In this document: piece after piece, positions 1 through 45,113 of the stretch | Position numbering within the stretch: the stretch's first letter is position 1 | Layout of the letters: each line of letters opens with the position of its first letter | NCBI GenBank assembly: GCA_965215265.1 | Contig: OZ244048.1 | Location: 4,549,989 to 4,613,988 of the forward strand | Origin: Candidatus Poribacteria bacterium | Lineage (GTDB): Bacteria > Poribacteria > WGA-4E > WGA-3G | Reading direction: 5' to 3' | DNA length: 64,000 nt | Made by a program: the position numbers and the translations under genes | The notes under the pieces: generated by a model | The model's input: only the letters and a program-made list of their open reading frames with translations | The model's database searches: none | What the model was told of the DNA's origin: nothing

Positions 1-1769
1 TCAGATTAGGAGAACCGGATAAAGCCGCGAAACGTTTTACGCATCTGATCGAAAACTACGGCCGGCACGCGGGAGCTTACTACTACTTAGGTGTCTATCA
101 TCTGCGGCACGGTAACCTTGAAGCAGCCATAGATAACTTCAAAGAATCCCTCCATCTCAGACCTCGGGACCCTGAAACCCTCTGGAATCTTTGGACAGCT
201 GCTTCCAAATTCGGCGGTTATCCAGACAACTTACCAGAGGCATTTAAAATTCGACCAAAATCAGCCGAACCGCGAATCGGTAGCACAAATCTTGATACAC
301 TGTCCCTCCCTAAATTTACCAACCTCGCTTCCGCTTTAGGCATGGACAAAGTTGATGGAGGTCGAGGTAGCGCCTGGGGTGACTACGATAAAGACGGCGA
401 TTTGGACATCGTCGCGGTCGGCACCTATCAGCCTCATGCACTTTATAGGAATAACGGTGACGGAACATTTACCGACGTTGCGGAAGACGCAGGCATAGCG
501 GATCCGCGCGGCGGCTGGGGCTCCCTATTTGCTGATTACAATAACGACGGATACATAGATCTCTATATCACACGCGGCGGCTGGTCGGGTGCAGCGGAGA
601 ATACCCTCTACCACAACAACGGTGACGGGACATTCACAGATGTCACCGAAATCGCAGGTGTCGCAGATCCGCAGAGCAGCTTCTGTGCCGCATGGGCAGA
701 TTACAATAATGACGGACATATAGATCTCTATATTGCAGACGGAGTCATCGGCGACGGGGCCCCCAACGTCCTCTACCACAATAACGGCGACGGCACTTTT
801 ATAAACACCGCAGAGGCAGCCGGGGTAGCGAACCGAGGAAACTCCCTCGGCACCGCATGGGGCGATTACAATAAAGACGGACACATCGATCTGCATGTTG
901 TCAACTTTGGACAACAGAATGTTCTCTATCGTAATAACGGCGACGGCACCTTCACCGACGTAACACCTACCACAGGCATGGAGTTATCTATCACCGACCC
1001 TTTCGTCACCTTTTTTTTAGATGTGGATAATGATGCAGATTTGGATATTTTCATTTCAAACTCAGGTTCTTTTCAAGCATTTATCGCATGTCAACTCACA
1101 GGCACGGCTACACACGATAGCGACCGGCAAGTGCTTTACCGCAACAACGGAGACGGCACTTTTACTGACGTAACGCGCGAATCGGGACTCTATAAAGCTT
1201 TTGGGGCAATGGGTGCCAACTTCGAAGATATTAATGGTGATGGCTATCTCGATATCTACCTCGCCACCGGCGCGCCACAAATGGGACGTTTGGAGAGAGA
1301 CGCGCTCTTCCTAAACAACGGTGACGGCACCTTTACCGATGAGACCATCACTTCAGGCTTAGGCAATATCGGAAAGGGGCACGGGGTTACCTTTGGCGAT
1401 GCAGATGCGGATGGAGACGTGGATATTTACGTTTCTGTTGGCGGTGCCTTTATTGGAGATCAGTGGCACAATCTTTTTTACCATAACCCGGGTACACAAA
1501 ACAATTGGATCACGCTCAAAACAGTTGGAGTCAAAAGCAACCGGGATGGCATCGGGGCAAAAGTGACACTCACCCTTGGGAATACCAAAATTTATAGAGA
1601 AGTCAGTGGCGGGTGTGGATTTGGCTCAACCAACAGCATTCCACTTGAAATCGGGTTAGGAAAAGCGAAACAGGTAGACAGACTTGAAATCGTTTGGCCC
1701 TCCGGGCAGATCGATATATACACCCATCTCGCTCCCAATCAGCCCTACGTCCTCACTGAAGGTTTTTAG
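1..1769 (+). CDS. TPR + FG-GAP/VCBS repeat + UnbV/ASPIC C-terminal domain protein (CRTAC1-family), 5' partial
   Basis: The reading frame of the 342..1769 ORF stays open back to base 3. It translates there as RLGEPDKAAKRFTHLIENYGRHAGAYYYLGVYHLRHGNLEAAIDNFKESL, which looks TPR-like. Repeated NNGDGTFTDV / DYNNDGxxDLY units are FG-GAP/VCBS-like. The C-terminus NRDGIGAKV...GGCGFGS matches the UnbV_ASPIC signature. Confidence 0.85.
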   Translation, partial: RLGEPDKAAKRFTHLIENYGRHAGAYYYLGVYHLRHGNLEAAIDNFKESLHLRPRDPETLWNLWTAASKFGGYPDNLPEAFKIRPKSAEPRIGSTNLDTLSLPKFTNLASALGMDKVDGGRGSAWGDYDKDGDLDIVAVGTYQPHALYRNNGDGTFTDVAEDAGIADPRGGWGSLFADYNNDGYIDLYITRGGWSGAAENTLYHNNGDGTFTDVTEIAGVADPQSSFCAAWADYNNDGHIDLYIADGVIGDGAPNVLYHNNGDGTFINTAEAAGVANRGNSLGTAWGDYNKDGHIDLHVVNFGQQNVLYRNNGDGTFTDVTPTTGMELSITDPFVTFFLDVDNDADLDIFISNSGSFQAFIACQLTGTATHDSDRQVLYRNNGDGTFTDVTRESGLYKAFGAMGANFEDINGDGYLDIYLATGAPQMGRLERDALFLNNGDGTFTDETITSGLGNIGKGHGVTFGDADADGDVDIYVSVGGAFIGDQWHNLFYHNPGTQNNWITLKTVGVKSNRDGIGAKVTLTLGNTKIYREVSGGCGFGSTNSIPLEIGLGKAKQVDRLEIVWPSGQIDIYTHLAPNQPYVLTEGF

Positions 1770-2134
1770 TATACTGCAGCACAACACAAGCAGTTGTAAT
1801 GTTTAATCCTTTACAAATCTCGTTTTTTCGTCTACAGGAGCCCATTAAAGGCTGCTGCTATATTAAAACCTTTGCAAATCTCGTCGGAGTCTTTCGATGT
1901 TATGAATCTAAACAGAAAGAGGCTCCGACGAGATTTATGCGAGGATATTCATTCTATCAGGTGTTGATGTGCTAAAAGATACGAAAAATCTAAACAGAGA
2001 GAGGCTCCGACGATCTATAGATGACGAGAAAAAGGTAATCTTTTCTCATGGACAGAAAAAGAATACCTATCTCGTCAGATTTGTGCGAGGTTGTATACTA
2101 CATCCATCAGTGACGTGCTAAAAGATACGAAAAA
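1763..2134. mobile_element. Composite array of a palindromic MITE-like element: one disrupted copy, one intact nested copy, and at least one fragment
   Basis: The termini are TTTTTAGTATACTGCAGCAC ... GTGCTAAAAGATACGAAAAA. The internal core is (T/G)CAAATCTCGTCGGAG-TTTCGATGTTATGAATCTAAACA-GGCTCCGACGAGATTT. The same element family occurs at 7690-7852 and 42077-42251. Confidence 0.65.
1824..1988. mobile_element. Intact ~165 bp copy of the palindromic element, nested inside the outer copy
   Basis: It starts TTTTTCGTCTACAGGAGC and ends GTGCTAAAAGATACGAAAAA. It has a perfect central stem CGTCGGAG / CTCCGACG around the loop TTTCGATGTTATGAATCTAAACAGAAAGA. It interrupts the outer copy right after TACAAATCTCGT. 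Confidence 0.6.
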
Positions 2135-2139
2135 CCACC

Positions 2140-3360
2140 TTACGTATCGCTCTCGTTGTCCGCTTCCAACAACCGACGCATCAGTTCCGAACGCACCTCC
2201 GATGGCAACGCCCGAAGCTCCGACTGCGATAACTCTTGAAGCGCCTTGACACGCTCATCGGCGCTCAGCCTTTTCACCAGTTCATCGGCACTGAGTCCTT
2301 TCACACGCTCATCAACACTGAGTCTTTTCACTAACTCCGAAGGCGGAATTCTCTCCAAGATATCCGAACCAAATTTCTCTATTAGCTCCCTCAACTCCGC
2401 TTGCGACAAACTTTGAAGCACCTTGATATGCTCATCAGCACTGAGTCCTTTCACACGCTCATCAACACTGAGCCTTTTCACTAACTCCGAAGGCGGAATT
2501 CTCTCCAAGATATCCGAACCAAATTTCTCTATTAGCTCCCTCAACTCCGCTTGCGACAAACTTTGAAGCACCTTGATATGCTCATCAGCACTGAGTCCTT
2601 TCGCACGCTCATCAACACTGAGCCTTTTCACTAACTCCGAAGGCGGAATTCTCTCCAAGATATCCGAACCAAATTTCTCTATTAGCTCCCTCAACTCCGC
2701 ATCGTAAAATCCTTGATGCCCCATCATACGTAACACCTCCAGTGCACGCAGTGGACGAATCCACAACGCATAGTTAAAATACACACGCTGTTCTTCTGAA
2801 ACAACCTGCTCAACAAACGAATCAAAGCCTGAAAACGACACCGTAAAAGGCAGAAGTAAATAGTTCTCACGCGCAATCTCTAGCTCATTGCACACTAATA
2901 GATGCACAGCAAACCTCTCTGTCCACTGGTAGTGTCCAGGCTTCACCAACTCCCATTCCCCACTGGTACCCGAGAGAAACCCCCGAGGCGAACTCGCCGT
3001 CACTATCGTCAAAGTGAGCTCATCCTTTGGAACCCGCTTATCCGACAGATAAATACTGGCCCGCGCATGGATACGGGAATAGTCCCACTCATCTAACCGA
3101 TCCGCTTGACTCTTGAACTCAATCAGGTTATGCGAACGGAAATACTGGCATATCGGCTCTACCGCCAGCAAGTTCGCACGCTCTGCTGCATCTTTCAACA
3201 GCACGACCACGTCTATCGTGAGCGGCAGATGGCTGACTTCCACCTCTGATTGGACAGTCAGCCCGATTTTCTCGCCGAGATGCTCGTGCATTGTCTGTTT
3301 GAAGCGTGCGTCATAGGTAGCACGGGCATCGCGCTGTTTTTCCGCATCGGCTATCCGCAT
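2140..3360 (-). CDS. PD-(D/E)XK nuclease-fold protein (Rpn/YhgA-like putative transposase class) with a C-terminal tandem-repeat domain
   Basis: 406 aa ORF. A candidate catalytic motif is ...LTIDVVVLL... followed by NLIEFK (D ... E-x-K). It is a paralog of the 42387..43310 product, sharing EVEV, LP, ID, NLxEFK, VTLTIV, GHY and VHLLVCNE blocks and a C-terminal EADNxSDT tail. The C-terminus carries SADERVKGL-type repeats. GGAGG lies upstream of the ATG. Confidence 0.8.
   Translation of the reverse strand: MRIADAEKQRDARATYDARFKQTMHEHLGEKIGLTVQSEVEVSHLPLTIDVVVLLKDAAERANLLAVEPICQYFRSHNLIEFKSQADRLDEWDYSRIHARASIYLSDKRVPKDELTLTIVTASSPRGFLSGTSGEWELVKPGHYQWTERFAVHLLVCNELEIARENYLLLPFTVSFSGFDSFVEQVVSEEQRVYFNYALWIRPLRALEVLRMMGHQGFYDAELRELIEKFGSDILERIPPSELVKRLSVDERAKGLSADEHIKVLQSLSQAELRELIEKFGSDILERIPPSELVKRLSVDERVKGLSADEHIKVLQSLSQAELRELIEKFGSDILERIPPSELVKRLSVDERVKGLSADELVKRLSADERVKALQELSQSELRALPSEVRSELMRRLLEADNESDT
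2281..2700. repeat. 150 bp tandem repeat, about 2.8 copies, in frame inside the nuclease gene
   Basis: CTAACTCCGAAGGCGGAATT recurs at 2331, 2481 and 2631. The full copies 2331-2480 and 2481-2630 differ at a single base (TCACACGCTC versus TCGCACGCTC). The unit encodes the 50 aa block ELRELIEKFGSDILERIPPSELVKRLSVDER(A/V)KGLSADEHIKVLQSLSQA. Confidence 0.95.
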
Positions 3361-3377
3361 AAACCCTCCATATTCTT

Positions 3378-3407
3378 AGTATACCATTAACTGTGTAAAG
3401 TTGTCAA
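3378..3407 (-). promoter_or_regulatory. Sigma-70-type promoter of the PD-(D/E)XK gene (TTGACA-18 nt-TATACT)
   Basis: The minus strand reads gcTTGACAactttacacagttaatggTATACTaagaatatGGAGGgtttATG. The same hexamers and spacing occur upstream of the paralog at 43344-43373. Confidence 0.6.
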
Positions 3408-3483
3408 GCACAAATTCACGCGGCCCATCTCAGGCAACGTGTGTAACCGCCTATAACCGCGCGCTAGAGGCCCAACACCCATC

Positions 3484-3530
3484 AAAAAACCCAGGGGCAG
3501 CCGCTTGTGAGGTAGCTGCCCCTAGTTTTT
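3484..3530 (-). terminator. Rho-independent terminator hairpin downstream of the 3594..4346 gene; near-identical to the hairpin at 43426-43470
   Basis: A 9 bp GC-rich stem AGGGGCAGC / GCTGCCCCT has a 13 nt loop containing GTGAGG. It is flanked by A6 on the left and T5 on the right, which gives a T-tract on either strand. Confidence 0.7.
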
Positions 3531-3593
3531 GTGATGTGTGGGGTTGTTACTACGGGCTCATCAATTCCTATATGCTGAAAAAAAACGCCGCAT

Positions 3594-4346
3594 CTAACGA
3601 ATTGCGGTACCCAATATGAGATCGTAGCCAATGGCATCCATCAAGGAAATGAGCACATTCCCATCAATCCTATCGACGAGATGATCGAGTCTACCGCGAT
3701 CGAAAAGCGTGCCGGCAACTGGTTCTTTTTCCGTAATTAAGATGATAAGTTGCATCGCTGCACCTGAAATCAAGGGAACTGTGAGATTATCATCAACGCG
3801 AAGCGGAAGAAGTTCAACGATAGTTGCAACGGATGCTCCAACCAGTGCAACAACGAGACTTGAGAATTCAGGCTGCAACTGCACACCGCTGTCGAAAAGG
3901 AACGAGAAAAAAAAGATCGCCGTCGCAGTGCAAACGATAAAACAGGCAGCACTCCCTTCTAAACTCTTCTGACCGGTGAGTTTCATCCTGCCCCACATTT
4001 TACCTACCAACGCCGCCGAAGTATCCCCCAAAACCATGAAGAAAATGCAGACAATTGCAGGCTGCTTATAAAAAAAGAAAATGCACAACAGCGTGCTGAT
4101 GAGATAGTAAGTTGCACCGGTAATAGCACCTTGGCGTTCATGTGTCCGAAGGAGCGGCATCAGTGCAGTAAAAAAAAACGCCCTGAAATGCGGCGATAGC
4201 CATTTCGCGAGTTCAACGGCTATCGCCACACCTGTCAAAATACACACAAAAAACAGTATCGTCGGTTTATCCATAAAGAGATAAACAACCGGGACGATTA
4301 AACCTGCCAGATGAATGCTTTTCCGACGTAACTCTTCCTTCATCAA
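3594..4346 (-). CDS. Polytopic membrane protein, CTP-transferase-1 / polyprenol (dolichol or phytol) kinase-like family
   Basis: 250 aa, with multiple hydrophobic segments. The N-terminus EELRRKSIHLAGLIVPVVYLF and the GDTSAALVGKMWGR block resemble the dolichol/phytol kinase and CdsA-like family. Confidence 0.6.
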   Translation of the reverse strand: MMKEELRRKSIHLAGLIVPVVYLFMDKPTILFFVCILTGVAIAVELAKWLSPHFRAFFFTALMPLLRTHERQGAITGATYYLISTLLCIFFFYKQPAIVCIFFMVLGDTSAALVGKMWGRMKLTGQKSLEGSAACFIVCTATAIFFFSFLFDSGVQLQPEFSSLVVALVGASVATIVELLPLRVDDNLTVPLISGAAMQLIILITEKEPVAGTLFDRGRLDHLVDRIDGNVLISLMDAIGYDLILGTAIR

Positions 4347-4365
4347 TGCTACCTCCGTCCAGAAT

Positions 4366-4572
4366 TCAAGGTTGAACCCTCCTCTTCAGGATACCCACTA
4401 CTGTACAGTTGATGCCTCTGTTGCAAACTGAATCCATCGCTTCCTTAATTGTGCCAGATGTCCCGATTAAAGACAAGCCAAAATGAGCGGTAGCCACGCT
4501 TTGCAATCCGATTTCGTAACGGACACACTGCGCAATTTTAATCTGACCTTCCAAAATTCTTGTTTTTGTCAA
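4366..4572 (-). CDS. Small hypothetical protein, possibly a NIL-domain-like fragment (tentative)
   Basis: 68 aa ORF with a TTG start. RILEGQIKI ... GLSLIGTSGTIKEAMDSVCNRGINCTVVG resembles the second half of a NIL (MetN C-terminal) fold. It is short and has no clear RBS. Confidence 0.3.
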   Translation of the reverse strand: MTKTRILEGQIKIAQCVRYEIGLQSVATAHFGLSLIGTSGTIKEAMDSVCNRGINCTVVGILKRRVQP

Positions 4573-4764
4573 AAAAACAACACATTTTTGTTACATTTGA
4601 CCAGTATAATTTTTTTACCATTGGAATAGAGTTGAGAACAAACGGATTCGCCTCAATCAAAATTATCTAACAGTAGGAGTTTGCAGTGCCGCAGGAGACA
4701 ATACATTCATCAAAAATCCAAAGAATATTGAAACCTGCCTAAGCGTAAAAAGAAGAGAGGAAAA

Positions 4765-7611
4765 ATGGAACGGTTTTGCATCATGCTGTTGCTGCTCATA
4801 CTTGGTACAGGGCCTGCTTTCGGCGAAAATGAAGCACAACAGCGAGTAAAAATTACCGGCGTGGTTATAGATAGCAACACCGAGGTACCCCTATCTAATG
4901 CCACTATCCGGGTAGTGGACACGTCTTCGCGTGATAGACAATCCCAAGTCAGTAGTGATGACACAGGGAATTTTTCTCTGGAACTACCGAGCGGTACCTA
5001 TACAATCCAAGTCACTGCTTCGTTTTACAATGCCTATGTCATTTCAGATTTTCAGGTTGATGTAGAGAAAGCGGTTGAACCCATTCGTGTCTTGATGACT
5101 GCTCAGGTTGTAAAACTCGACGCGATTAAACTCCCAGTGCGGTTGAGCCAATCCAGCGAACGTGGGCTCCTTGAAAAACGGATGCGCAGCTCCCGAATTG
5201 AAGATAGCATCAGCACCGAAGAGATTAGCCGCCTCCCAGCCTCTTCTGCAGGGGATGCTATTAAGAGGGTGACAGGCGTTAGCATCGTTGGCGGACGGTA
5301 CGTGTTTGTCCGAGGGCTCGGTGAACGTTACAGTAATACTCTCCTCAATAATGTTGAGATTCCGAGTCCGGAGCCCAATCGACGGGTTGTCCCGATGGAT
5401 ATATTTCCGGCGAGTCTCCTGGCGAGTTTGCAAACAGTCAAAACGTTTTCACCGGATCAACCGGGGGGGTTCGCTGGCGGCTCTGTACAGGTGTTTACGA
5501 AAGACTTTCCTGAAGAATTAACAATGTCACTTTCCATATCGAGCGGTTTCAACACACAGACAACCGGTGAAGAAGGGCTCACCTATGAAGGCGGTACGCT
5601 GGATTTCTTAGGTTTTGATGATACATCGCGTGAACTTCCAACGATTGTGAGAGAACAGGCGGCGGAACTGCCTATCCGCGAACGGGGACGTTTTACACCG
5701 GCCGGTTTCACACCGGAAGAGATCCAAAAATTCGGGCAAGCTTTCTCCAACGTCTGGTCACCAAGACGGCAGGAGATTCCTATCAATCAAAGCTATAAAT
5801 TCAACCTCGGCAACAGTCACCCACTTTTCGGAAAAGACTTCGGCTACCTTGCCGTGCTCTCTTATGGCAACAGCCATAGTTCCAGTACCCAAGTGCGCAA
5901 TGCCTTCCGCATCGGATTAAACGAAATCCTTTCGCCGGTAACCTCCTACGACGTTGAACGCAACGCAAATGAAGTAGACTGGGGGAGTGTTCTAAACGCA
6001 AGCCTCCGGTTCTCACCACAGCATCAACTGAGTCTACGTTCTCTCTTCACGCATACGGCTGAAGATGAGACCCGGATATGGGAAGGCTTTAATGCCGATA
6101 GAAACACAGATATGCGGAGCTCTCGACTCCGATATGTTGAACGCCAGCTCTTCTCTGGACAATTAGCCGGCATGCACGACTTTAATTTCGGTGCCCCAGA
6201 ACTGGAACGTTCCAGCGCGGATAGTGGGACAGAAGCGATAACAACCCAGCCCGAGCTCGCAATGGAATGGCGACTCACTTATTCACGTGCATCACGGGAC
6301 GAACCAGATACACGCGAGACTATCTATGAAGATAGGGCTGGCACTTTCACTTTTCGAGATGTTACACACAGTGGCAGCCGCTTCTTTTTTGACCTGGAAG
6401 ATAATGAGTATAACGTGCGCGTGGATTGGAGGATTCCGGTTCGCAAGGCCGGATTCTTCAAATTCGGCGGACTCTTGCGAGATCGAGCGCGCACCTTTGA
6501 TGCCCGCAGATTTAGATTTTTGCCTGCAGACAAAGTGGATGCCACCGTTAATTTATCAGACCCGCCCGAAACACTTTTCAAACAGGAACATATTGCACCA
6601 CGCGTATTTGAACTACGCGAATCCACTCGGGCAACCGATAACTACCTAGCAGACCACAATATCTACTCCGGCTACCTTATGCTGGATATCCCTGTCACGC
6701 AAAAATGGCAATTCATGTCGGGGGTCCGGCTTGAATCTTCAACGCAAAAGGTAACTACCTATGATCCGTTTTCAGCATCCGTGCGGCCAATTGTGGCAGA
6801 TTTAGAAACCGTAGATTTGCTGCCCGGTGCTAACTTGACGTACCGGCTAGCGGAACGGATGAACCTACGAGTCGCTGCATCACGAACGATTACACGCCCA
6901 GATTTTAGAGAACTTGCTCCATTTGAGTTCACAGATTTCGTTGGCGGACGAACCATCCTTGGAAACCCGGAACTTGAGCGGACACAGATTGACAATTATG
7001 ACTTCCGCTGGGAAGTGTTTCCACAAATTGGTGGGGTCGTCGCCGCCAGTCTCTTTTATAAACGATTTCAGAAACCGATTGAGCAAATCGTTCAGCCGCA
7101 AGCAGAAGTCCGCATTACCTATGAAAACGCCGACGCTGCGAATAACTACGGCCTTGAACTAGAAGCACGCCAGAACCTCGGAATACTCACAGATAAACTC
7201 AACGAATTCTCGATTAACACCAATGTGGCGCTAATCTCTTCGCGGGTGGTACTACCTGATGTTGGGATCCAGACATCGTCTGAACGGCCCCTACAAGGGC
7301 AGTGCCCGTATATAGTCAATCTCTCTATCGGTTACGAAAACCCCAACTGGGGCATCTCGAGCGCAGTCGCTTATAACATTTTTGGCAAAAGGCTCTCTGA
7401 AGTTGGAAACCATGGTGTACCTGATGTTTATGAACAGCCCCGCGGCCAGTTGGATGCCAATTTTAGCCGCACCGTTGCAAATTACTTCCGAATCAATTTT
7501 TCGGCGAAAAATTTACTCGACCCTTATGTGCATTTCAAACAAGGCGAAGAGGTATACGTTCAGTACAAACTCGGACGTGCCTTTTCATGCGGACTCAGCT
7601 ATAACCTCTAA
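4765..7611 (+). CDS. TonB-dependent receptor with an N-terminal carboxypeptidase-regulatory-like domain
   Basis: 948 aa with a signal peptide. The CarbopepD_reg-like block is ITGVVIDSNTEVPLSNATIRVVDT. The plug region is RLPASSAGDAIKRVTGVSIVGGRYVFVRGLGERYSNTLLNNVEIPSPEP. A long beta-barrel-like C-terminal part follows. Confidence 0.88.
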   Translation: MERFCIMLLLLILGTGPAFGENEAQQRVKITGVVIDSNTEVPLSNATIRVVDTSSRDRQSQVSSDDTGNFSLELPSGTYTIQVTASFYNAYVISDFQVDVEKAVEPIRVLMTAQVVKLDAIKLPVRLSQSSERGLLEKRMRSSRIEDSISTEEISRLPASSAGDAIKRVTGVSIVGGRYVFVRGLGERYSNTLLNNVEIPSPEPNRRVVPMDIFPASLLASLQTVKTFSPDQPGGFAGGSVQVFTKDFPEELTMSLSISSGFNTQTTGEEGLTYEGGTLDFLGFDDTSRELPTIVREQAAELPIRERGRFTPAGFTPEEIQKFGQAFSNVWSPRRQEIPINQSYKFNLGNSHPLFGKDFGYLAVLSYGNSHSSSTQVRNAFRIGLNEILSPVTSYDVERNANEVDWGSVLNASLRFSPQHQLSLRSLFTHTAEDETRIWEGFNADRNTDMRSSRLRYVERQLFSGQLAGMHDFNFGAPELERSSADSGTEAITTQPELAMEWRLTYSRASRDEPDTRETIYEDRAGTFTFRDVTHSGSRFFFDLEDNEYNVRVDWRIPVRKAGFFKFGGLLRDRARTFDARRFRFLPADKVDATVNLSDPPETLFKQEHIAPRVFELRESTRATDNYLADHNIYSGYLMLDIPVTQKWQFMSGVRLESSTQKVTTYDPFSASVRPIVADLETVDLLPGANLTYRLAERMNLRVAASRTITRPDFRELAPFEFTDFVGGRTILGNPELERTQIDNYDFRWEVFPQIGGVVAASLFYKRFQKPIEQIVQPQAEVRITYENADAANNYGLELEARQNLGILTDKLNEFSINTNVALISSRVVLPDVGIQTSSERPLQGQCPYIVNLSIGYENPNWGISSAVAYNIFGKRLSEVGNHGVPDVYEQPRGQLDANFSRTVANYFRINFSAKNLLDPYVHFKQGEEVYVQYKLGRAFSCGLSYNL

Positions 7612-7689
7612 ATGAGAGGCATCAGCATCGCGGAACGTCAAAAAGAATTAATAGTATTGCAACTATTCTGTAACAATTTAAGGCTATCA

Positions 7690-7852
7690 TTTTTCGTATA
7701 TTTCAGCCCCATCAAGGGTTATGTATTGTTAAATCCGATGTACATCTCGTCAGAGCCTTTCGATGTTATGAATCTAAACATAAACGGCTCTAGTGAGATT
7801 TGTGCTAAGGTGTTCATTATATCAATCATTGTTGTGCTCTTGTAGACAAAAA
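7690..7852. mobile_element. Solo copy of the palindromic MITE-like element
   Basis: TTTTTCGTATATTTCAGCCCC ... ACATCTCGTCAGAGCC-TTTCGATGTTATGAATCTAAACATAAAC-GGCTCTAGTGAGATTTGTGCTAAGG ... GTGCTCTTGTAGACAAAAAA. It lies in the 355 bp gap between the TBDR gene and the downstream lipoprotein gene. Confidence 0.65.
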
Positions 7853-7966
7853 ATTGAATTGGCAACCCTTTTGCCGATGAGCGGGAAAAGGGTGCCTTAT
7901 ACCCAAAAAAGCGGGGTTTTTGTGCTCCGCTTGTTCTAAAATAAAAAAAGGAGCTTAGTTAAGCTA

Positions 7967-9343: not shown

Positions 9344-9890
9344 TAGCACTGGCCCCATAAGCGTAGTTTGGTTTTCCGATAAGACCGGGCTCGCACGGCA
9401 AACCCCTTGGACGTTCATAGCCAGTCTCCTTATTTGCAGTAGTTTGGCAGGATGTGAACAATCCAAGTGGCAGAATAGTCTCGACTCGCCAGGCCGACTC
9501 GGTCTGGCAGTCGTTGACGCTCTGAATCGGAAAGACCTTCAAAAAATGAACCGGCTCCGCGTGCAGCGCACAGAATATCTCACTTGGATATGGCCAGCTT
9601 TTCCAGCCAGCCGTCCGCCAAGCAACTTCCCCGGTGATTTTGCCTGGGCCAATCTCAATAAAAAATGTAGCATCGGGATGAAAAGAGCCATAGAACGTTA
9701 CGGAGGACAGAACTTTACCTTTGTAGGGATTCGCTTTACAAAACCTTCAGAAGACTATGACGGGTTTCAACTTTTGCGTGGAACCGTTTTGACATTAAGA
9801 AATCAGACAGGCAAAACGTTGGAAGCCAAGATTCTCGGTTCTGTAATTGTTAAGGATAATCGTTACAAGTTCCTAAGTTACGACGACTAA
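9330..9890 (+). CDS. Hypothetical lipoprotein
   Basis: 186 aa ORF overlapping the preceding gene by 14 nt. It has a candidate lipobox, SSLAGCEQ. I recognise no family. Confidence 0.5.
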   Translation: MRKTNSTGPISVVWFSDKTGLARQTPWTFIASLLICSSLAGCEQSKWQNSLDSPGRLGLAVVDALNRKDLQKMNRLRVQRTEYLTWIWPAFPASRPPSNFPGDFAWANLNKKCSIGMKRAIERYGGQNFTFVGIRFTKPSEDYDGFQLLRGTVLTLRNQTGKTLEAKILGSVIVKDNRYKFLSYDD

Positions 9891-11035: not shown

Positions 11036-12361
11036 CTACTGATTTTCCCACTCAAACCGCTGTTTATCTATCTTCGCTTTCTCTTCATCTACAAAACGCA
11101 ACAACACCAACCCGACAATAAAGAAAACGATAAGCGAGATGATAGCTTGGCGTGCGTCGCCTGTGATGTGACGAATAAAGCCAAACACAAACGGTCCCCA
11201 AATCGCCGAGAACTTATTAAAAACTGAATAGAAACCATAAAACTCAGCACTCGCCTGTTCTGGAACTATTCGCCCGTAGAAGGAACGGCTCAGCGCTTGT
11301 GTTCCGCCAAGCACAATGCCAACAACCACGCCTAACAAAAAGTATTGCATTGCACCATCAATGAAATACCCGTAGGTGACAACAGCACTCCAGAGAAGCA
11401 AGGCAAAGATAATAGCACGTTTTGTGCCGATGCGTTCCGCTAACCGACTGAATAGCAGCGCACCGCCTATTGCAATGATTTGGATAACGAGCAACGTCAC
11501 TAGGAGTACCGTTGTTGAAAGCTCTAACGTTTCCTTACCGTAAATTGTCGCCATGCTGGTAACCGTATGGATACCGTCATTATAAATCATATAGGCGATC
11601 AGAAAGAGCGTGAGATGTTTAAAGCGGCCTACCTTTTTCGCAGTCGCCAGGGTGCGGCGAATGCCGAGCGCCAGATAACCTTTTACTTTTAAGGAATCAG
11701 GCCCATTTTCAGGTAACGCGTGAGGTGTTTTCTCTTCCTTAAGGTACTTAGCCGTCAAAAGTGTCCAGCCTGCCCACCAGAGTCCCGCCATTGCCATCCC
11801 GATACGTGCTGCCATGGCTTGACTCATTCCCAACGTTTCATGCATCGCAACGAGTGCCAGAGAAATAGCAAACTGAGTCCCACCGCCGATGTACCCAAAT
11901 GCATAACCGTTAGCGGAGACAGCATCCAGTTTATCTTCAGAGGCAATGTGTGGTAAAAAAGCGTCATAGAAGACATTCGCCCCCACAAAACAGACCTGGG
12001 AGCCGATAAAGAGGCACACCGTCAACACGACATCTCCTGTCTTACAAAAATAGAGCAAGGTTGCGAAAAAGCTGCCCATGTAAGCGAAACCGAGCAGAAA
12101 CCGCTTTTTCGCCGAAGAGAAATCGGCGATAGCCCCCAGGACAGGCGCGAAGAGGAAGACTAAAAATGCGGACGCTGCCAACATCCATGCCCATAACGTC
12201 TCACTACTTACGTTATGCCCGGCAATGTTAACACCATCTTCGCCTACGATCGCTCCTGCAAAATAGACAGGCAACAAGGCAACCACCGTCGTCGTAATAT
12301 AGGCCGAATTCGCCCAATCATATAGACACCAGCCCAAAATTGTTTTCTTATCGTTTTTCAT
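11036..12361 (-). CDS. MFS transporter, UMF1/Atg22-like family
   Basis: 441 aa, roughly 12 TM segments. The N-terminus ILGWCLYDWANSAYITTTVVALLPVYF is characteristic of the UMF1 (Atg22-like) MFS family. Confidence 0.8.
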   Translation of the reverse strand: MKNDKKTILGWCLYDWANSAYITTTVVALLPVYFAGAIVGEDGVNIAGHNVSSETLWAWMLAASAFLVFLFAPVLGAIADFSSAKKRFLLGFAYMGSFFATLLYFCKTGDVVLTVCLFIGSQVCFVGANVFYDAFLPHIASEDKLDAVSANGYAFGYIGGGTQFAISLALVAMHETLGMSQAMAARIGMAMAGLWWAGWTLLTAKYLKEEKTPHALPENGPDSLKVKGYLALGIRRTLATAKKVGRFKHLTLFLIAYMIYNDGIHTVTSMATIYGKETLELSTTVLLVTLLVIQIIAIGGALLFSRLAERIGTKRAIIFALLLWSAVVTYGYFIDGAMQYFLLGVVVGIVLGGTQALSRSFYGRIVPEQASAEFYGFYSVFNKFSAIWGPFVFGFIRHITGDARQAIISLIVFFIVGLVLLRFVDEEKAKIDKQRFEWENQ

Positions 12362-19310: not shown

Positions 19311-19557
19311 ACAACCTCAAATGCTGTCTGACTCTAGTGACACCGATGACAGATGACAGAGATAAAGAGGGTTGAAAGGCATATCGACTTGTGGGTAAGA
19401 GTAAGCCGCCTACGGTGGGCTAGGGGTGCTCATCCTAAGAACACCTTATCGCTTGAATCTCTAAAAAAATAGGATTTTTTCGTGACATTTTTTTTCAACT
19501 TATGTTATACTTTCGGCAAAAGGGCTCGAATGCAATATGCCAAGGGTTAGGAGGGAC

Positions 19558-19652
19558 GCCATCGCTCCAATATTTAACCAAAAACGTAATATTAATATAA
19601 GTGTTGAGCCTGTCTTAACATGATGCCATCGCTCCAATATTTAACCAAAAAC
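19558..19652. repeat. Two perfect 28 bp direct repeats, 67 bp apart, in the leader of the metalloprotease gene
   Basis: GCCATCGCTCCAATATTTAACCAAAAAC occurs at 19558-19585 and again at 19625-19652. Confidence 0.9.
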
Positions 19653-23154: not shown

Positions 23155-23680
23155 CTCATTTACCCCCGTTTTTTTTGAAGGTTTGTGGTGAAAGGTTTTT
23201 GTTTAGAAACATGTGAGAAAAGCAGTGGGTTAGAGATACCCGAACCGGGTAAATCCCACATCTCTGATAACCCGTTTTCAAAACATCTTCAAGTCTATTG
23301 CTCTAAAAAAGCCTGCGTTGCGTCACTTGCTCTTTGTGCTGATAGCGGTGAGTGTGTCGCAAACGTTTGGGGTCAATGCGCTCGCGTTGCGTTTGCCGCT
23401 TTCGGTAAAATGAGAGAAGTTGAAACAGAAAAGGTTGCTCCGCCCAGTGGGTGGCAGGTAAAAGGTAGCAAAGCGTGTCCTTCAGGACACGACTTTCTAC
23501 CTATCTCGCAACTTATCTCTCCTTGCAGGAGAGACAAAGAATACCTATCTCGCAACTTTCTACCTATCTCGCCACTGTCCTTCAGGACAGCCAAAGAATA
23601 CCTATCCTGCCACTTTTCTCACACACAAACCTAACAATATCACACACAGACGACTCTCAAAAAAAATGGGGGTAAATGAG
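23155..23680. repeat. 526 bp non-coding segment bounded by 24 bp inverted repeats (MITE-like)
   Basis: CTCATTTACCCCCGTTTTTTTTGA at 23155-23178 and TCAAAAAAAATGGGGGTAAATGAG at 23657-23680 are complementary at 23 of 24 positions. The segment lies between convergent genes. Confidence 0.7.
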
Positions 23681-41950: not shown

Positions 41951-42076
41951 AATTCCTGCTACATAAAACGAAGCGAACAGAGAACACACTAGTGGGCGAT
42001 GCGAGGGCTCGCTTGTTGCGGGATTTGCATAAACTCTTATTATTTCAAACGATGGCACTCAAAAAAAGTTTACACG

Positions 42077-42251
42077 TTTTTTGTATATTTCAGCACATCA
42101 ACGCCTGATGTTTTTCTAAAATCTTTACAAATCTCGTATGAGCCTTTCGAGGTTATGAATTCTAAACATAAAATATCTCTGGCGAGATTTGTGCGAGGTT
42201 GTTCATTAAATCCATCGGTGACGGGCTGAAAGATTGGAATCAATGAAAAAA
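42077..42251. mobile_element. Copy of the palindromic MITE-like element, 3' of the second PD-(D/E)XK gene
   Basis: TTTTTTGTATATTTCAGCACATCAACGCCTGAT ... TACAAATCTCGTATGAGCC-TTTCGAGGTTATGAATTCTAAACA-...GGCGAGATTTGTGCGAGG ... GGGCTGAAAGATTGGAATCAATGAAAAAA. Confidence 0.6.
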
Positions 42252-42386
42252 GGCGGCATGCCGGAGCCACGTGCCCTAGTTAGGTGAATTTACATCTCAC
42301 TGAGTTTACTCTTGTGCCTTAAGCGTCGCCCAGCATTCTGTGAGTTTACCGTCCGCACTCAGATGCCCTTTCAAGCGGGTTGTCTG

Positions 42387-43310
42387 CTACGTGTCGGTGT
42401 GGTTGTCAGCTGCCTCCAGCTGCCGCACGAGTTCTGCACGCAGCGCCGGAGATAAATGAAGTCCGGCTAACCGCTCATCGGGAGTGAGTCCTTTGACGCG
42501 CTCATCGGCACTTAGGCGTGCTAACATATCGGTGCGTTCTTGAGGGCTCAAGCGGGACAGCATGTCCGCACGCTCCTCCGATGTCAGTGCAGACAGCAGC
42601 TTCGGACCTAAAGTCGTCGCAACTTCGCGAAGACGACTCTGAAAGAAATCTTGACGGCCTTCCATTTCACAAACCTCCTCCGTGACTTCCGGCTGCAAAT
42701 ACAACGCGGAGTCAAAATATAACGTATTCTCTTCCGTTATCACCCGCCGCAGGAACGCACGAAACTGTTTCTGCGACGACGCAAACAGCAGCAACCAATA
42801 ATTCGGCTCAACCACCTCCACTTCATTGCAAACCAACAGATGCACCGGCACGCCATCCATCAACCGATAATGCCCTGCCGCCAATGGCTCCCACGGCTCC
42901 CCAAAAGGCGGACGGGAGAGCAGTGCCCGCGGCTTCCGAGACGACACTATCGTCAAGGTAACCTCCGTGTCTGGCACCTTATGCGCTGCGAGATAACCAC
43001 GCGCACGCATACAAATCCGGTGATACGCCGAGGCATTCAACGGATCGTTCTGCCCTTTGAATTCGAACAGATTATACGTCCGTAAGTAAGAGAGCAGCGG
43101 GTGCGCACGCACTCTCGTGCGTGCCGCCGCGCTTTCGAGGAGAGCGAGTGCATCTATACGCTGCGGCAACCGGTTGACTTCTATCTCTGTCTGGATAGAG
43201 GCACCCAGCCCAGAGAACAGCAGGGCGAGGAACTCTTTGAAGAAAGGGTCCCAAAACTGCCGTTTGCTTTGTGTTTGTTTGGATGTCTCTGGTGCCGTAG
43301 TTTGCCTCAT
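42387..43310 (-). CDS. PD-(D/E)XK nuclease-fold protein, paralog of the 2140..3360 product
   Basis: 307 aa. The catalytic-type motif is RIDALALL followed by NLFEFK. It shares VTLTIVSS, GHY, VHLLVCNEVEV, NYWLLLF and LYFDSAL blocks with the paralog. The C-terminus has SxEER/SADERVKGL repeats and an EAADNHTDT tail. Confidence 0.8.
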   Translation of the reverse strand: MRQTTAPETSKQTQSKRQFWDPFFKEFLALLFSGLGASIQTEIEVNRLPQRIDALALLESAAARTRVRAHPLLSYLRTYNLFEFKGQNDPLNASAYHRICMRARGYLAAHKVPDTEVTLTIVSSRKPRALLSRPPFGEPWEPLAAGHYRLMDGVPVHLLVCNEVEVVEPNYWLLLFASSQKQFRAFLRRVITEENTLYFDSALYLQPEVTEEVCEMEGRQDFFQSRLREVATTLGPKLLSALTSEERADMLSRLSPQERTDMLARLSADERVKGLTPDERLAGLHLSPALRAELVRQLEAADNHTDT

Positions 43311-43343: not shown

Positions 43344-43373
43344 AGTATAGCAGCTTCTCTGTTATTTTGTCAA
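43344..43373 (-). promoter_or_regulatory. Sigma-70-type promoter of the second PD-(D/E)XK gene (TTGACA-18 nt-TATACT)
   Basis: The minus strand reads ctgccTTGACAaaataacagagaagctgcTATACTttatt. The hexamers and 18 nt spacing are identical to those at 3378-3407. Confidence 0.6.
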
Positions 43374-43425: not shown

Positions 43426-43470
43426 AAAAAAAACCAGGGGCAGCCATGTGAGGGTGGCTGCCCCTGGTTT
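43426..43470 (-). terminator. Rho-independent terminator of the LRR protein gene; same hairpin family as 3484-3530
   Basis: Perfect 12 bp stem CCAGGGGCAGCC / GGCTGCCCCTGG with a 10 nt loop containing GTGAGG. On the minus strand it is followed by T8. Confidence 0.8.
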
Positions 43471-43520
43471 AGGTTAGGTTAACTTAGATTTCACTGAGTT
43501 TATTCTTCCGAGTTAAGTTG

Positions 43521-45113
43521 TTAATTTGCCAGAGGCGAGATATCCGACACTTGCGTATCACTGAGATCCAGCACTCTCAAGTTCGTGAGGTTTGCCAGCG
43601 GCGTGACATCCGACACTGGCGTACCCCCAAGATCCAACTCTTCCAAGTTGGTGGCGTATTCAAGTCCAGTCAGATTTCTAACGTCTGAGCCACTTAAATC
43701 TAGGCTTGTCAAGCCGAGCATATGTACCGAGGTCACAGCCGTCCCCGCGGAGATGTCGAGTGTCTCCTTGATTGCCGCAAGGAGCGTCTCATCCGGAATA
43801 TTCACCTCGACGCTTGTATTTACAGGCACCGTCAGCGTATTCGAGGCACGGCTCAGGTTGCCCACTATGTCCATTGTGGCATCCGCTGGCACCGTTATTT
43901 CCACATCTCCGTCAAAAGCAGACGGCGGCGTGATAGTCGCTCTGTAGACTTTGAAGGCGGAACTATGTTTCACCAACCCCAGATCATCATTCGCCGGCGC
44001 AGAACCGGGATCCCGATGGTCTAAGCCGATTAACATCGGGGCTGAAACCTGCCAATCAGCCGTGGTGGTGCCTAGTGTCACCGCGGTGTCATCTACCTTG
44101 AGCGTGATGTCCGTCGCCTCGAAGCCTCGCGTGGTATCTGCAATCACACCATCAGCGTCATTTCCAATCCCATAATTGTAGAATAGGAATTCCACATCAA
44201 AGGACTCTGTCTGAGTGTCAGGTTCGGTAACAGGCGGATTGGGCTCTGCCGCTTCAAACGGTGCAAAATTCACATAGGCGGTGCGGTAACCCGTCTCAAC
44301 ATCATGAGTATCATCCTTGATCAGGCCGTGGATCCTCACGCTCGCCCGGATAGTATCTATGAGATAGTTAAGACCGTCATGATCAGAAGGGGTCGGCAGC
44401 GGATGACTCCGGTCGTAAAAAATCTGCATCTTGTCATAGTAGATCCTCACATTACTCTGGTCAGTTTTCCACTTATCAGTATTGCCGGTGTTCTCGACGG
44501 GGTTCTCGACGGTAGCAGCTTTATCTATGATGAAATTATTTGCATCGTCAGAATAGGGATCCGGAGTGCGATCTATAACAACGCCATCGCCGAAAACGTC
44601 ATCACCGTCTTGCACCTCGTATCTGAAATATACGACTTTATTATCGGTTCGCGCACCGGTCCTTACTGAATCATAGACGGCAGCTAGCTCAGTAGTGCCA
44701 TCGGGGCGGGTGGTCTCACCGTCCATATCTAGCGCCAGGGCCGGCAGAGCGGACGTTCCATCGTGCTGGACTTTGACATCTATATCAAATGTCAACTTAA
44801 AAACGATTTCATCTGTACTACCGAAAAATTTAACCGCTAGGCCCGTGGTGGGGTTGGAGTACCCCGGAGCAGTAAGAATGCCCGATGTATGGTTTGCTAG
44901 TAGATTCTTCCTAAAATTTCCACCCCGCTCCCAATCTGCAATTAACCGTGACCTGCTGTCCGCATAGAGCGAATCGCCTGTATGTGGACCTTCACTCTCT
45001 ATCTCAACCGACTCTAACATCGGTTTATCTGCCTGCACGGTAGCCATCGGTGCGGCTAACATCGCAATCCCGGCTATCGAAATTACAGATGAGATAAATC
45101 CGCCACTCAACAC
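43521..45113 (-). CDS. Secreted protein with C-terminal leucine-rich repeats (internalin-like LRR)
   Basis: 530 aa, GTG start. The signal-like N-terminus is GGFISSVISIAGIAMLAAPMATVQA. The C-terminal 22-residue LRR units are LTSLDLSGSDVRNLTGLEYATNLEELDLGGTPVSDVTPLANLTNLRVLDLSDTQVSDISPLAN. Confidence 0.75.
   Translation of the reverse strand: MLSGGFISSVISIAGIAMLAAPMATVQADKPMLESVEIESEGPHTGDSLYADSRSRLIADWERGGNFRKNLLANHTSGILTAPGYSNPTTGLAVKFFGSTDEIVFKLTFDIDVKVQHDGTSALPALALDMDGETTRPDGTTELAAVYDSVRTGARTDNKVVYFRYEVQDGDDVFGDGVVIDRTPDPYSDDANNFIIDKAATVENPVENTGNTDKWKTDQSNVRIYYDKMQIFYDRSHPLPTPSDHDGLNYLIDTIRASVRIHGLIKDDTHDVETGYRTAYVNFAPFEAAEPNPPVTEPDTQTESFDVEFLFYNYGIGNDADGVIADTTRGFEATDITLKVDDTAVTLGTTTADWQVSAPMLIGLDHRDPGSAPANDDLGLVKHSSAFKVYRATITPPSAFDGDVEITVPADATMDIVGNLSRASNTLTVPVNTSVEVNIPDETLLAAIKETLDISAGTAVTSVHMLGLTSLDLSGSDVRNLTGLEYATNLEELDLGGTPVSDVTPLANLTNLRVLDLSDTQVSDISPLAN

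Follow-up and report, generated by a model that had tools for sequence, protein, structure and literature searches.

The 64,000-nt stretch of Candidatus Poribacteria bacterium DNA analysed here (GCA_965215265.1, OZ244048.1, 4,549,989 to 4,613,988; hereafter the window, meaning the whole of this stretch) carries two paralogous genes, A and B, each encoding a predicted nuclease of the PD-(D/E)XK type and each accompanied by a promoter-like site, a GC-rich hairpin and a palindromic repeat element. All four parts that the original prediction for this DNA had described (gene, promoter, hairpin and element) were found on the minus strand of both loci, and they are non-random. We describe here this gene unit, its multiplication within one lineage, a putative internal start codon that would give each gene a second product, and a neighbouring palindromic element that looks like a repeat of its own. 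The genes and the signals in front of them are the following:

2140-3360, minus strand: gene A, 406 aa, with an N-terminal domain assigned to the PD-(D/E)XK fold and a C-terminal helical repeat domain
3378-3407, minus strand: promoter-like site of gene A, TTGACA-18-TATACT, with a TG-extended -10
3485-3530 (core 3494-3522), minus strand: GC-rich hairpin of locus A, stem GGGGCAGC/GCTGCCCC, CCTCAC loop (GTGAGG on the plus strand), then TTTTTT
42387-43310, minus strand: gene B, 307 aa, paralogue of A, with motif residues D53, E83 and K85
43344-43373, minus strand: promoter-like site of gene B, TTGACA-18-TATACT, with a TG-extended -10
43431-43470 (core 43437-43464), minus strand: hairpin of locus B, 16 perfect pairs, CCCTCACA in the loop, then a T-run

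Results

An unannotated family of predicted PD-(D/E)XK nucleases, expanded in one lineage

The A and B proteins are 39% identical (BLASTP, E 2e-56); roughly one third had been estimated by eye. Their family lacks annotation in the four profile libraries searched, the N-terminal 215 residues having no match in Pfam, NCBIfam, PADLOC or PHROG. A word-indexed search of 5.8 billion proteins returned only 21 clusters for it, and eight of these lie on one 4,833,177-bp contig, with gene A among them; gene B brings the total for the source genome to at least nine copies, and the paralogues span 252 to 406 aa. The gene is thus expanded in this lineage to at least nine copies and is present once in each of four other Poribacteria chromosomes, in three of which synteny is conserved; one further Poribacteria metagenome-assembled genome (MAG) holds three copies. 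A profile search of 1.84 billion representatives collected 1,247 proteins at E <= 1e-3 (these being representatives at 50% clustering).

In an alignment of 84 homologues whose columns are on average 14% identical, no substitution occurs at D53, K85 or P127, and N80, E83 (at least 90% conserved) and D89 are nearly invariant. AlphaFold2, run with this alignment on residues 1-215 of B, gave a model with a predicted local distance difference test score (pLDDT) of 93.5 and a predicted template modelling score of 0.88. The modelled core follows the order alpha-beta-beta-beta-alpha-beta (helix 12-34, strands 38-44, 51-57 and 79-85, helix 93-110, strand 117-123), with D53 on strand 2 and E83-x-K85 on strand 3. 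The fold assignment rests on this N-domain model, which replaced an earlier, poor full-length model built from 22 sequences (pLDDT 67), whose Foldseek search had been uninformative. With the N-domain model, Foldseek returned nothing from the PDB below E 0.03, and so none at E <= 0.001; the best matches of the same fold lie at E 0.05-0.4 with probabilities up to 0.96, and the top ranks are mostly taken by proteins of the restriction-endonuclease fold (R2 RLE domain, NucS (2vld), BspD6I, Bse634I, EcoO109I, McrC, TnsA). The PDB sequence search gave just weak matches, to the MgtE N-domain. We accept the family as PD-(D/E)XK nucleases with an intact D...ExK motif, as had been proposed, and predict that they cleave DNA in a metal-dependent reaction.

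Promoter and hairpin

The promoter-like sites lie ~20-35 nt upstream of genes A and B. The exact pattern TTGACA-18-TATACT, correctly predicted at both loci, occurs in the 64 kb only there (two matches, both before paralogues; 0.00 expected), and every match in the fetched loci directly precedes a paralogue. The hairpin stands 63 and 86 nt from the promoter at the two loci and follows a common pattern, GGGGCAGC(T/C)ACC(C)TCACA..GCTGCCCC and then a T-run; at B, 10 of the 16 pairs are GC and the stem is followed by TTTTTGTTTT, the stem at A being equivalent. In its sequence it has the form of an intrinsic terminator (GC-rich stem and T-run), at which termination would be predicted.

The hairpin had been described as lying behind unrelated upstream genes. 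It is real and common to both loci, but it is not the terminator of those genes: it belongs to the duplicated segment, and at A it lies inside inserted DNA. Neither does it behave as a generic terminator, the objection that the original prediction had raised against itself, for in the ~100 kb of lineage DNA sampled it is confined to sites beside these genes. (The sample for hairpin and element densities is ~99-100 kb of non-redundant DNA from this species-level lineage.) The four single-copy Poribacteria loci and the three-copy MAG have no hairpin, promoter pattern or element.

An insertion with an empty counterpart at locus A

The A region has a syntenic relative, L047 (a 4.0-Mb contig, 77-80% nucleotide identity), which aligns with window positions 1-1762 and 3743-7679. 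There, convergent FG-GAP/ASPIC and dolichol-kinase-like genes are 23 bp apart, and where L047 has ~30-50 bp the window, from 1763 to ~3722-3742, has ~1.95 kb comprising the element array, gene A, promoter, hairpin and ~200 nt of unassigned origin. The gene, promoter and hairpin move together as a unit, which the L047 site lacks. The span first given for this cassette, 1763-3530, was right at its left end, but its right end has to be moved to ~3722-3742:

3531-3735, minus strand: rest of the inserted block, with a GC stem and T-run; native DNA begins somewhere between 3722 and 3742

Comparison with the empty site in L047 showed no target-site duplication, and both flanking gene ends are altered. 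In the FG-GAP/ASPIC gene (342-1769) the last codons have been replaced and the stop codon is supplied by the first bases of the element, while the 45-codon extension and the stop (3594) of the dolichol-kinase-like gene (3594-4346, minus) come from the insert; the product of the latter has 249 aa in the window versus 186-227 aa in more than 100 homologues listed from other genomes. An inverted-repeat search found no terminal inverted repeats bounding either cassette, at A or at B. As side observations, the FG-GAP/ASPIC protein ends in ...LTEGF* in the window (1760-1769) and in ...LTEGVSH* in the relative, and the extended dolichol-kinase-like form is also present in the same-species relatives P0408 and L046.

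We consider locus A a clean and datable example of gene spread, with an empty site, dragged neighbour fragments and two altered host-gene ends, and it bears on the repeated annotation of such genes as transposases.

Locus B, the other paralogue loci and the mode of spread

Six independent paralogue loci were compared, namely A, B (with its orthologous locus L012), L002a, L002b, L001 and L014. Around gene B, the pieces that matter for this comparison are:

42253-42270, minus strand: terminator-like hairpin with T-run, between gene B and the element
42279-42386, minus strand: remnant of an LRR-LTD gene 3' end (...QTTRLKGHLSADGKLTECWATLKAQE*) with spacer, a direct repeat of the module upstream of B
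43473-43520, minus strand: spacer and last ~20 nt of the LRR-LTD gene 3' end, the upstream copy of a 45-nt direct repeat

In L001, the order after a 900-aa LRR-LTD gene (ending ...LKGHLSADGKLTERWATLKSEE*) is spacer, hairpin, promoter and B-like gene. About 80 nt of this LRR gene end are repeated, along with spacer and hairpin, downstream of B, L002a and L002b; gene B is bracketed by the 45-nt direct repeat of the LRR 3' spacer, and the remnant at 42279-42386 reads as the start of a decayed second duplication unit. L014 carries (at 9390-9660) an orphan 270-nt LRR fragment before the hairpin, far from any LRR gene, and fragments of paralogue pseudogenes lie directly downstream of intact genes both there (11244-11378) and in L001 (4250-4320). 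In L002, A-like and B-like genes stand in tandem, with an identical promoter, near-identical 3' ends and nuclease domains ~45% identical. No hairpin precedes L002a, those that follow B and L002b differ in sequence, and the position of B is stable between relatives. Given the dragged LRR 3' ends, the pseudogene fragments, the variable ends and the lack of terminal repeats or target duplication, the comparison of these sequences indicates spread by imprecise duplication, in tandem or by segments, accompanied by gene conversion. This is the pattern reported for rpn arrays and not that of bounded transposition.

The LRR gene upstream of B (43500-45113, minus) codes for 530 aa, without the LTD domain and the C-terminus of the 900-aa LRR-LTD protein of L001, and the ~20 nt of LRR-LTD end left after its stop codon suggest an internal deletion. 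A read-through past the TAG stop of B was also considered and rejected, the LRR-like peptide beyond it being in frame at B and out of frame in L002a.

C-terminal repeats and a probable internal start

The C-terminal part of the family proteins is helical, gives weak MgtE_N-like matches and is built of repeats. Among B-type copies whose nuclease domains are more than 85% identical, the number of a 12-aa unit (ADMLASLPAAER) varies. Gene A has a longer unit, for which Tandem Repeats Finder reports 98% matches over 2.8 copies (2282-2700); its expansion is very recent and falls within the region predicted to encode the short protein:

2282-2731, minus strand: three tandem 150-nt (50-aa) repeats in the C-terminal part of gene A, copies 89-100% identical to the reference copy

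In one alignment column, just past the nuclease domain, 58 of 71 sequences have a methionine (M216 in B, M212 in A), and no other column is rich in methionine apart from the start codon. In all 22 fetched loci having that residue, a Shine-Dalgarno (SD)-like motif (GGAG/GAGG/AGGA) stands 4-18 nt 5' of it, against a rate of 14% at arbitrary in-frame positions; when synonymous codons were resampled with the peptide held fixed, 12.9 of 22 such motifs were expected. The 22 loci represent ~11 distinct peptide contexts (TKEVLTM, MRRIYTM, VREGFAM, FEEAYSM, VKEMNGM and others), and the joint probability of the motifs, counting one value per context, is ~1e-3 by a hand estimate. In a second clade, AGGAGGG precedes the methionine by 11 nt in 17 of 18 cases. 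Judging from these signals, each gene probably makes a second, short C-terminal protein from the internal start, as follows:

2140-2740, minus strand: predicted internal product A-S, 195 aa (GGAGGTG at 2740-2734, 6 nt, ATG at 2727-2725)
42387-42681, minus strand: predicted internal product B-S, 92 aa (GGAGGAGG at 42681-42674, 8 nt, ATG at 42665-42663)

A remote homologue, P0144, has this nuclease domain fused to a nuclease domain of the bacterial EndoU type at the C-terminus (E 8e-17), which shows that the family can exchange its C-terminal module. In a distant clade, a module 'LEKEGKERMAYE' with an upstream AGGAGGG was seen two or three times per locus (L008 at 6827-7022, 10445 and 10739; L027 at 1840 and 2188; L030 at 737 and 1031), and these could be duplicated short-protein modules or stand-alone short genes, of the kind described for some rpn loci.

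The palindromic element

Five copies of the element, whole or in part, were located in the window (strand not assigned):

1762-1823: left-half copy, at the left end of the ~1.95-kb insertion
1823-1990: full copy, ~168 bp, with terminal inverted repeats TTTTTCGTAT(A/C)TTT(C/T)AGC(A/C)C
1987-2135: partial copy (right arm) with a ~60-nt insert (about 2014-2076), ending 5 nt from the gene A stop
7687-7858: solo copy flanked by genes for a TonB-dependent receptor and a beta-helix protein, away from any paralogue
42074-42247: copy downstream of gene B; its counterpart at the orthologous locus L012 is 99.4% identical

The element measures ~165-175 bp and is an imperfect palindrome over its full length, with terminal inverted repeats of 17-20 nt; full copies are found with nhmmer E-values of 1e-47 to 5e-52, and repeats of its terminal type occur just at element ends. 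Its consensus hairpin spans the whole length, and six stem pairs are changed on both sides among four copies. As RNA it folds marginally better than shuffled sequences (z about -1.9), and it has no family match in Rfam.

The original prediction had the element abutting the 3' ends of the genes. This is right for A, where 5 nt, without a terminator, separate the array from the stop codon (2140-2142), but not for B, where the element begins ~140 nt past the stop codon, behind the gene-fragment remnant and the terminator-like hairpin; the solo copy at 7687-7858 is a third site. Four element loci are present in the ~99 kb of lineage DNA, three of them downstream of a paralogue (A, B/L012 and L002a), and none at three of the six independent paralogue loci (L001, L014 and, on its downstream side, L002b). 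Its orientation with respect to the gene is inverted in L002 compared with A and B. It is absent from L047 at both syntenic sites, from all distant homologue loci, and from the metagenome contigs and viral contigs scanned (0 matches). The 7.7-kb site of L047 was examined as a clean empty site for the solo copy and rejected as such, its intergenic DNA being too diverged.

Because three of the six loci lack it, because a solo copy exists, because it is inverted in L002 and because a terminator-like hairpin precedes it at B, the element looks, by its sequence and distribution, like a separate small repeat of this species, of the miniature inverted-repeat transposable element (MITE) or repetitive extragenic palindromic (REP) kind, and not like a partner of the nuclease. 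Bacterial palindromic repeats of this kind include the Correia, ERIC and RUP elements. It resembles MITE/REP repeats in length, in its full-length imperfect palindrome and terminal inverted repeats, in its several dispersed intergenic copies and clustered partial copies, restricted to one lineage, and in its ability to overlap gene ends and provide a stop codon. It differs from them in that no autonomous parent with the same ends and no clear target-site duplication were found, and in that its copies are enriched beside one gene family. In REP/RAYT and IS200/IS605-type systems a gene is flanked by hairpins on which its product acts, and the present arrangement is reminiscent of these, its nuclease-type gene standing between a conserved hairpin and palindromic repeats; however, the A and B proteins are not HUH/Y1 enzymes, the hairpin is not dispersed in the sampled DNA and the palindromic element is sometimes absent. 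The element is a new small repeat family for Poribacteria, and its interest would be modest unless the enrichment near the nuclease genes extends to the whole genome.

Discussion

A probable gene within a gene, beside a probably independent repeat

We think, with a probability of roughly 0.55, that A and B are copies of a lineage-expanded PD-(D/E)XK gene unit, built as an Rpn-like gene within a gene, which lies beside an independent palindromic repeat. The unit consists of a terminator-type hairpin, a strong sigma-70-like promoter and the nuclease gene, and A and B are paralogous copies of it; as the comparisons show, it spreads by imprecise segmental or tandem duplication and ectopic recombination, taking along pieces of the donor's neighbourhood, and exchange between copies homogenises promoters and 3' ends. 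Besides the full-length nuclease, each gene would probably give a short protein of helical repeats, started internally at the domain boundary. As in RpnL/RpnS, by analogy, this short protein may bind and restrain the long nuclease, the two forming a toxin/antitoxin pair, and the variable repeat number may tune the matching of short to long proteins. The element would have landed in T-rich intergenic DNA and accumulated near some paralogues. Translation of the short protein, its role as an antitoxin and any function in defence are what we infer in this scheme.

The model for such a system comes from the rpn genes, in which RpnS, made from an internal start, neutralises the toxic RpnL nuclease, the repeat number in the shared region decides which short and long proteins pair, and the genes occur in many copies per genome, in tandem-duplication arrays with variable ends that show neither terminal repeats nor a target duplication (Zhong et al. 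2023, PMC10400941). The genes described here share with Rpn (COG5464 / PF04754 / TIGR01784) an N-terminal PD-(D/E)XK-type nuclease domain joined to a small helical C-terminal domain, the presence, in some lineages, of numerous paralogues within one genome, tandem arrays with stray gene fragments beside intact copies, variable segment ends without terminal inverted repeats or target duplications, and a C-terminal region differing in repeat number (a unit of 12 aa or 50 aa here, of 4 aa in Rpn). They also have a conserved putative internal ribosome-binding site and start codon that would yield a short C-terminal protein, and remote members of the family bear Rpn-type tails or DUF4351. In copy number, variable C-terminal repeats and the conserved internal SD plus ATG, the family resembles the published RpnL/RpnS systems.

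The proteins had been called Rpn/YhgA-like, and this name stands for the behaviour but not for family membership. The predicted short protein is longer (92-195 aa) and begins at the domain boundary, whereas RpnA-S has ~49 aa; the A and B genes lie outside defence islands; and the catalytic motif is D...ExK here against a putative D...ExQ, as read from the sequence, in RpnA. PF04754 matches none of the 84 family members, and TIGR01784 matches eight of them, all remote, in model positions ~156-273 (the C-terminal third) and below the cut-off; DUF4351 is present in two of the 84, again remote members, and EndoU in one. A single RpnA sequence has no match to the family profile. A full-length profile-profile comparison with an RpnA alignment gave 40% probability, with the signal coming from the C-terminal part, and paired ID(53) with SD(63)VLW, NLFEFK with IEHQS, and WDPFFK with HDALFK. 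When hhalign was run with the N-domain only, against a 117-sequence RpnA alignment, the probability was 0.4% and the score 14.8, versus 13.9 for the reversed-sequence control. We have therefore rejected the 40% match as homology of the nuclease domains and do not file A and B as Rpn members.

Several points weigh against the reading that we prefer, and we think that they should be stated together. On the side of Rpn, nuclease-domain homology is not demonstrated, neither A and B nor the other close members match PF04754 or TIGR01784 at E <= 1-10, and the two window proteins have no DUF4351 and no Rpn tail. The internal start is deduced from sequence alone, and the conserved 'E-V' peptide by itself yields an SD-like motif ~59% of the time. 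The neighbourhoods of the family are made of housekeeping genes with no defence island, no PADLOC model matches the window proteins and no relative of the proteins was found in the viral contigs scanned (0 found), so that a defence role draws no support from these three sources. The enrichment of the element beside paralogues (three of six loci; rough p ~1e-3, our own estimate from a small and partly biased sample) goes beyond chance and is not explained by independence of the two. Finally, the hairpins of A and B are ~85% identical in surroundings that cannot be aligned, a pattern not accounted for by simple descent.

Should the internal start prove real, the principle known from Rpn, a toxin/antitoxin pair from a gene within a gene, would extend to a separate family of at least 1,247 representatives (50% clustering), and the conserved Shine-Dalgarno-plus-ATG signature could help to find more such systems.

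Other explanations

The original prediction had offered as one model an autonomous/non-autonomous pair, in which the nuclease would mobilise the element or use it as a recombination hot spot, the element being its cognate DNA. We regard this as unlikely, although the element stands 5-140 nt downstream of the gene at three of the six loci against about one solo locus in ~99 kb, its array forms one end of the inserted block at A, the partial copies in that array suggest repeated breakage and recombination, and six stem pairs show compensatory changes among four copies. The cassette has neither matching terminal repeats nor a target duplication; half of the paralogue loci do without the element and the single-copy homologues elsewhere never have it; the solo copy exists, and the orientation relative to the gene varies. 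Moreover, this fold on its own is not known from any autonomous transposase (PMC10400941). In a wider form of the idea, the element and/or the CTCAC-loop hairpin would be the DNA substrate of the nuclease, and breaks there would drive the spread and rearrangement of the unit; we regard this, too, as unlikely, and were it true, the action of the nuclease on these sequences would provide the first cognate DNA substrate for an Rpn-like 'putative transposase'.

Somewhat less probable still, in our opinion, is a selfish gene resembling a homing endonuclease, which would cut the LRR-LTD 3' end or the CTCAC hairpin and be copied into the break by repair. Such copying would explain the LRR 3'-end copies at the flanks: B, L001 and L014 sit behind an LRR gene or LRR fragment, the 45-nt repeats of the LRR 3' spacer bracket B, the hairpin is far better conserved than its surroundings, and the insertion at A shows neither terminal repeats nor a target duplication. 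Yet there is no LRR sequence at the A insertion site, the ends of the copied segments vary by locus, the same sequence on both sides of B indicates duplication and not a split target, and B keeps its position between relatives.

We are equally sceptical of a hairpin that would serve as a protein-binding or recombination site, whether attC-like or an operator to which the short protein would bind. A perfect 16-bp inverted repeat and its loop have been kept while the proteins have diverged to 39% identity and the other non-coding DNA has become unalignable, and in the sampled DNA the hairpin is found beside these genes alone. Against this, it is in every respect built like an intrinsic terminator (GC stem and 7-8 T), its distance from the promoter differs between the loci, L002a lacks it upstream, other hairpin sequences follow B and L002b, and gene conversion between copies is evident elsewhere.

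The second model of the original prediction, a nuclease with a 3'-encoded guide or scaffold RNA made from the element, as in the omega-RNA of IscB/TnpB, is already close to refutation by the present data and very improbable, for although the element lies 5 nt past the A stop with no terminator between and is able to form a long hairpin, it is inverted in L002 compared with the window, separated from B by a terminator-like hairpin, missing at half of the paralogue loci and at all distant homologues, hardly more stable than shuffled sequences (z about -1.9) and without match in Rfam, and the protein is a PD-(D/E)XK enzyme by our assignment, not an RNA-guided nuclease of the RuvC/HNH type.

Other repeats in the window

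A 67-nt segment at 23615-23680 is 95.5% identical to L002 2857-2923, which lies directly upstream of a paralogue promoter, and no paralogue is present at this place in the window. The 23.6-kb site was considered as an empty site for the L002 pair and rejected, just the 67-nt repeat being common to both, with no synteny. The segment (region 23497-23680) is preceded by short 'ctacctatctcgc' repeats resembling the insert in the partial element copy at 2048-2081, and repeats of this type look like another small dispersed family. Lastly, a 31-nt direct repeat occurs twice at 19555-19652, its copies being 97% identical and separated by 67 nt.

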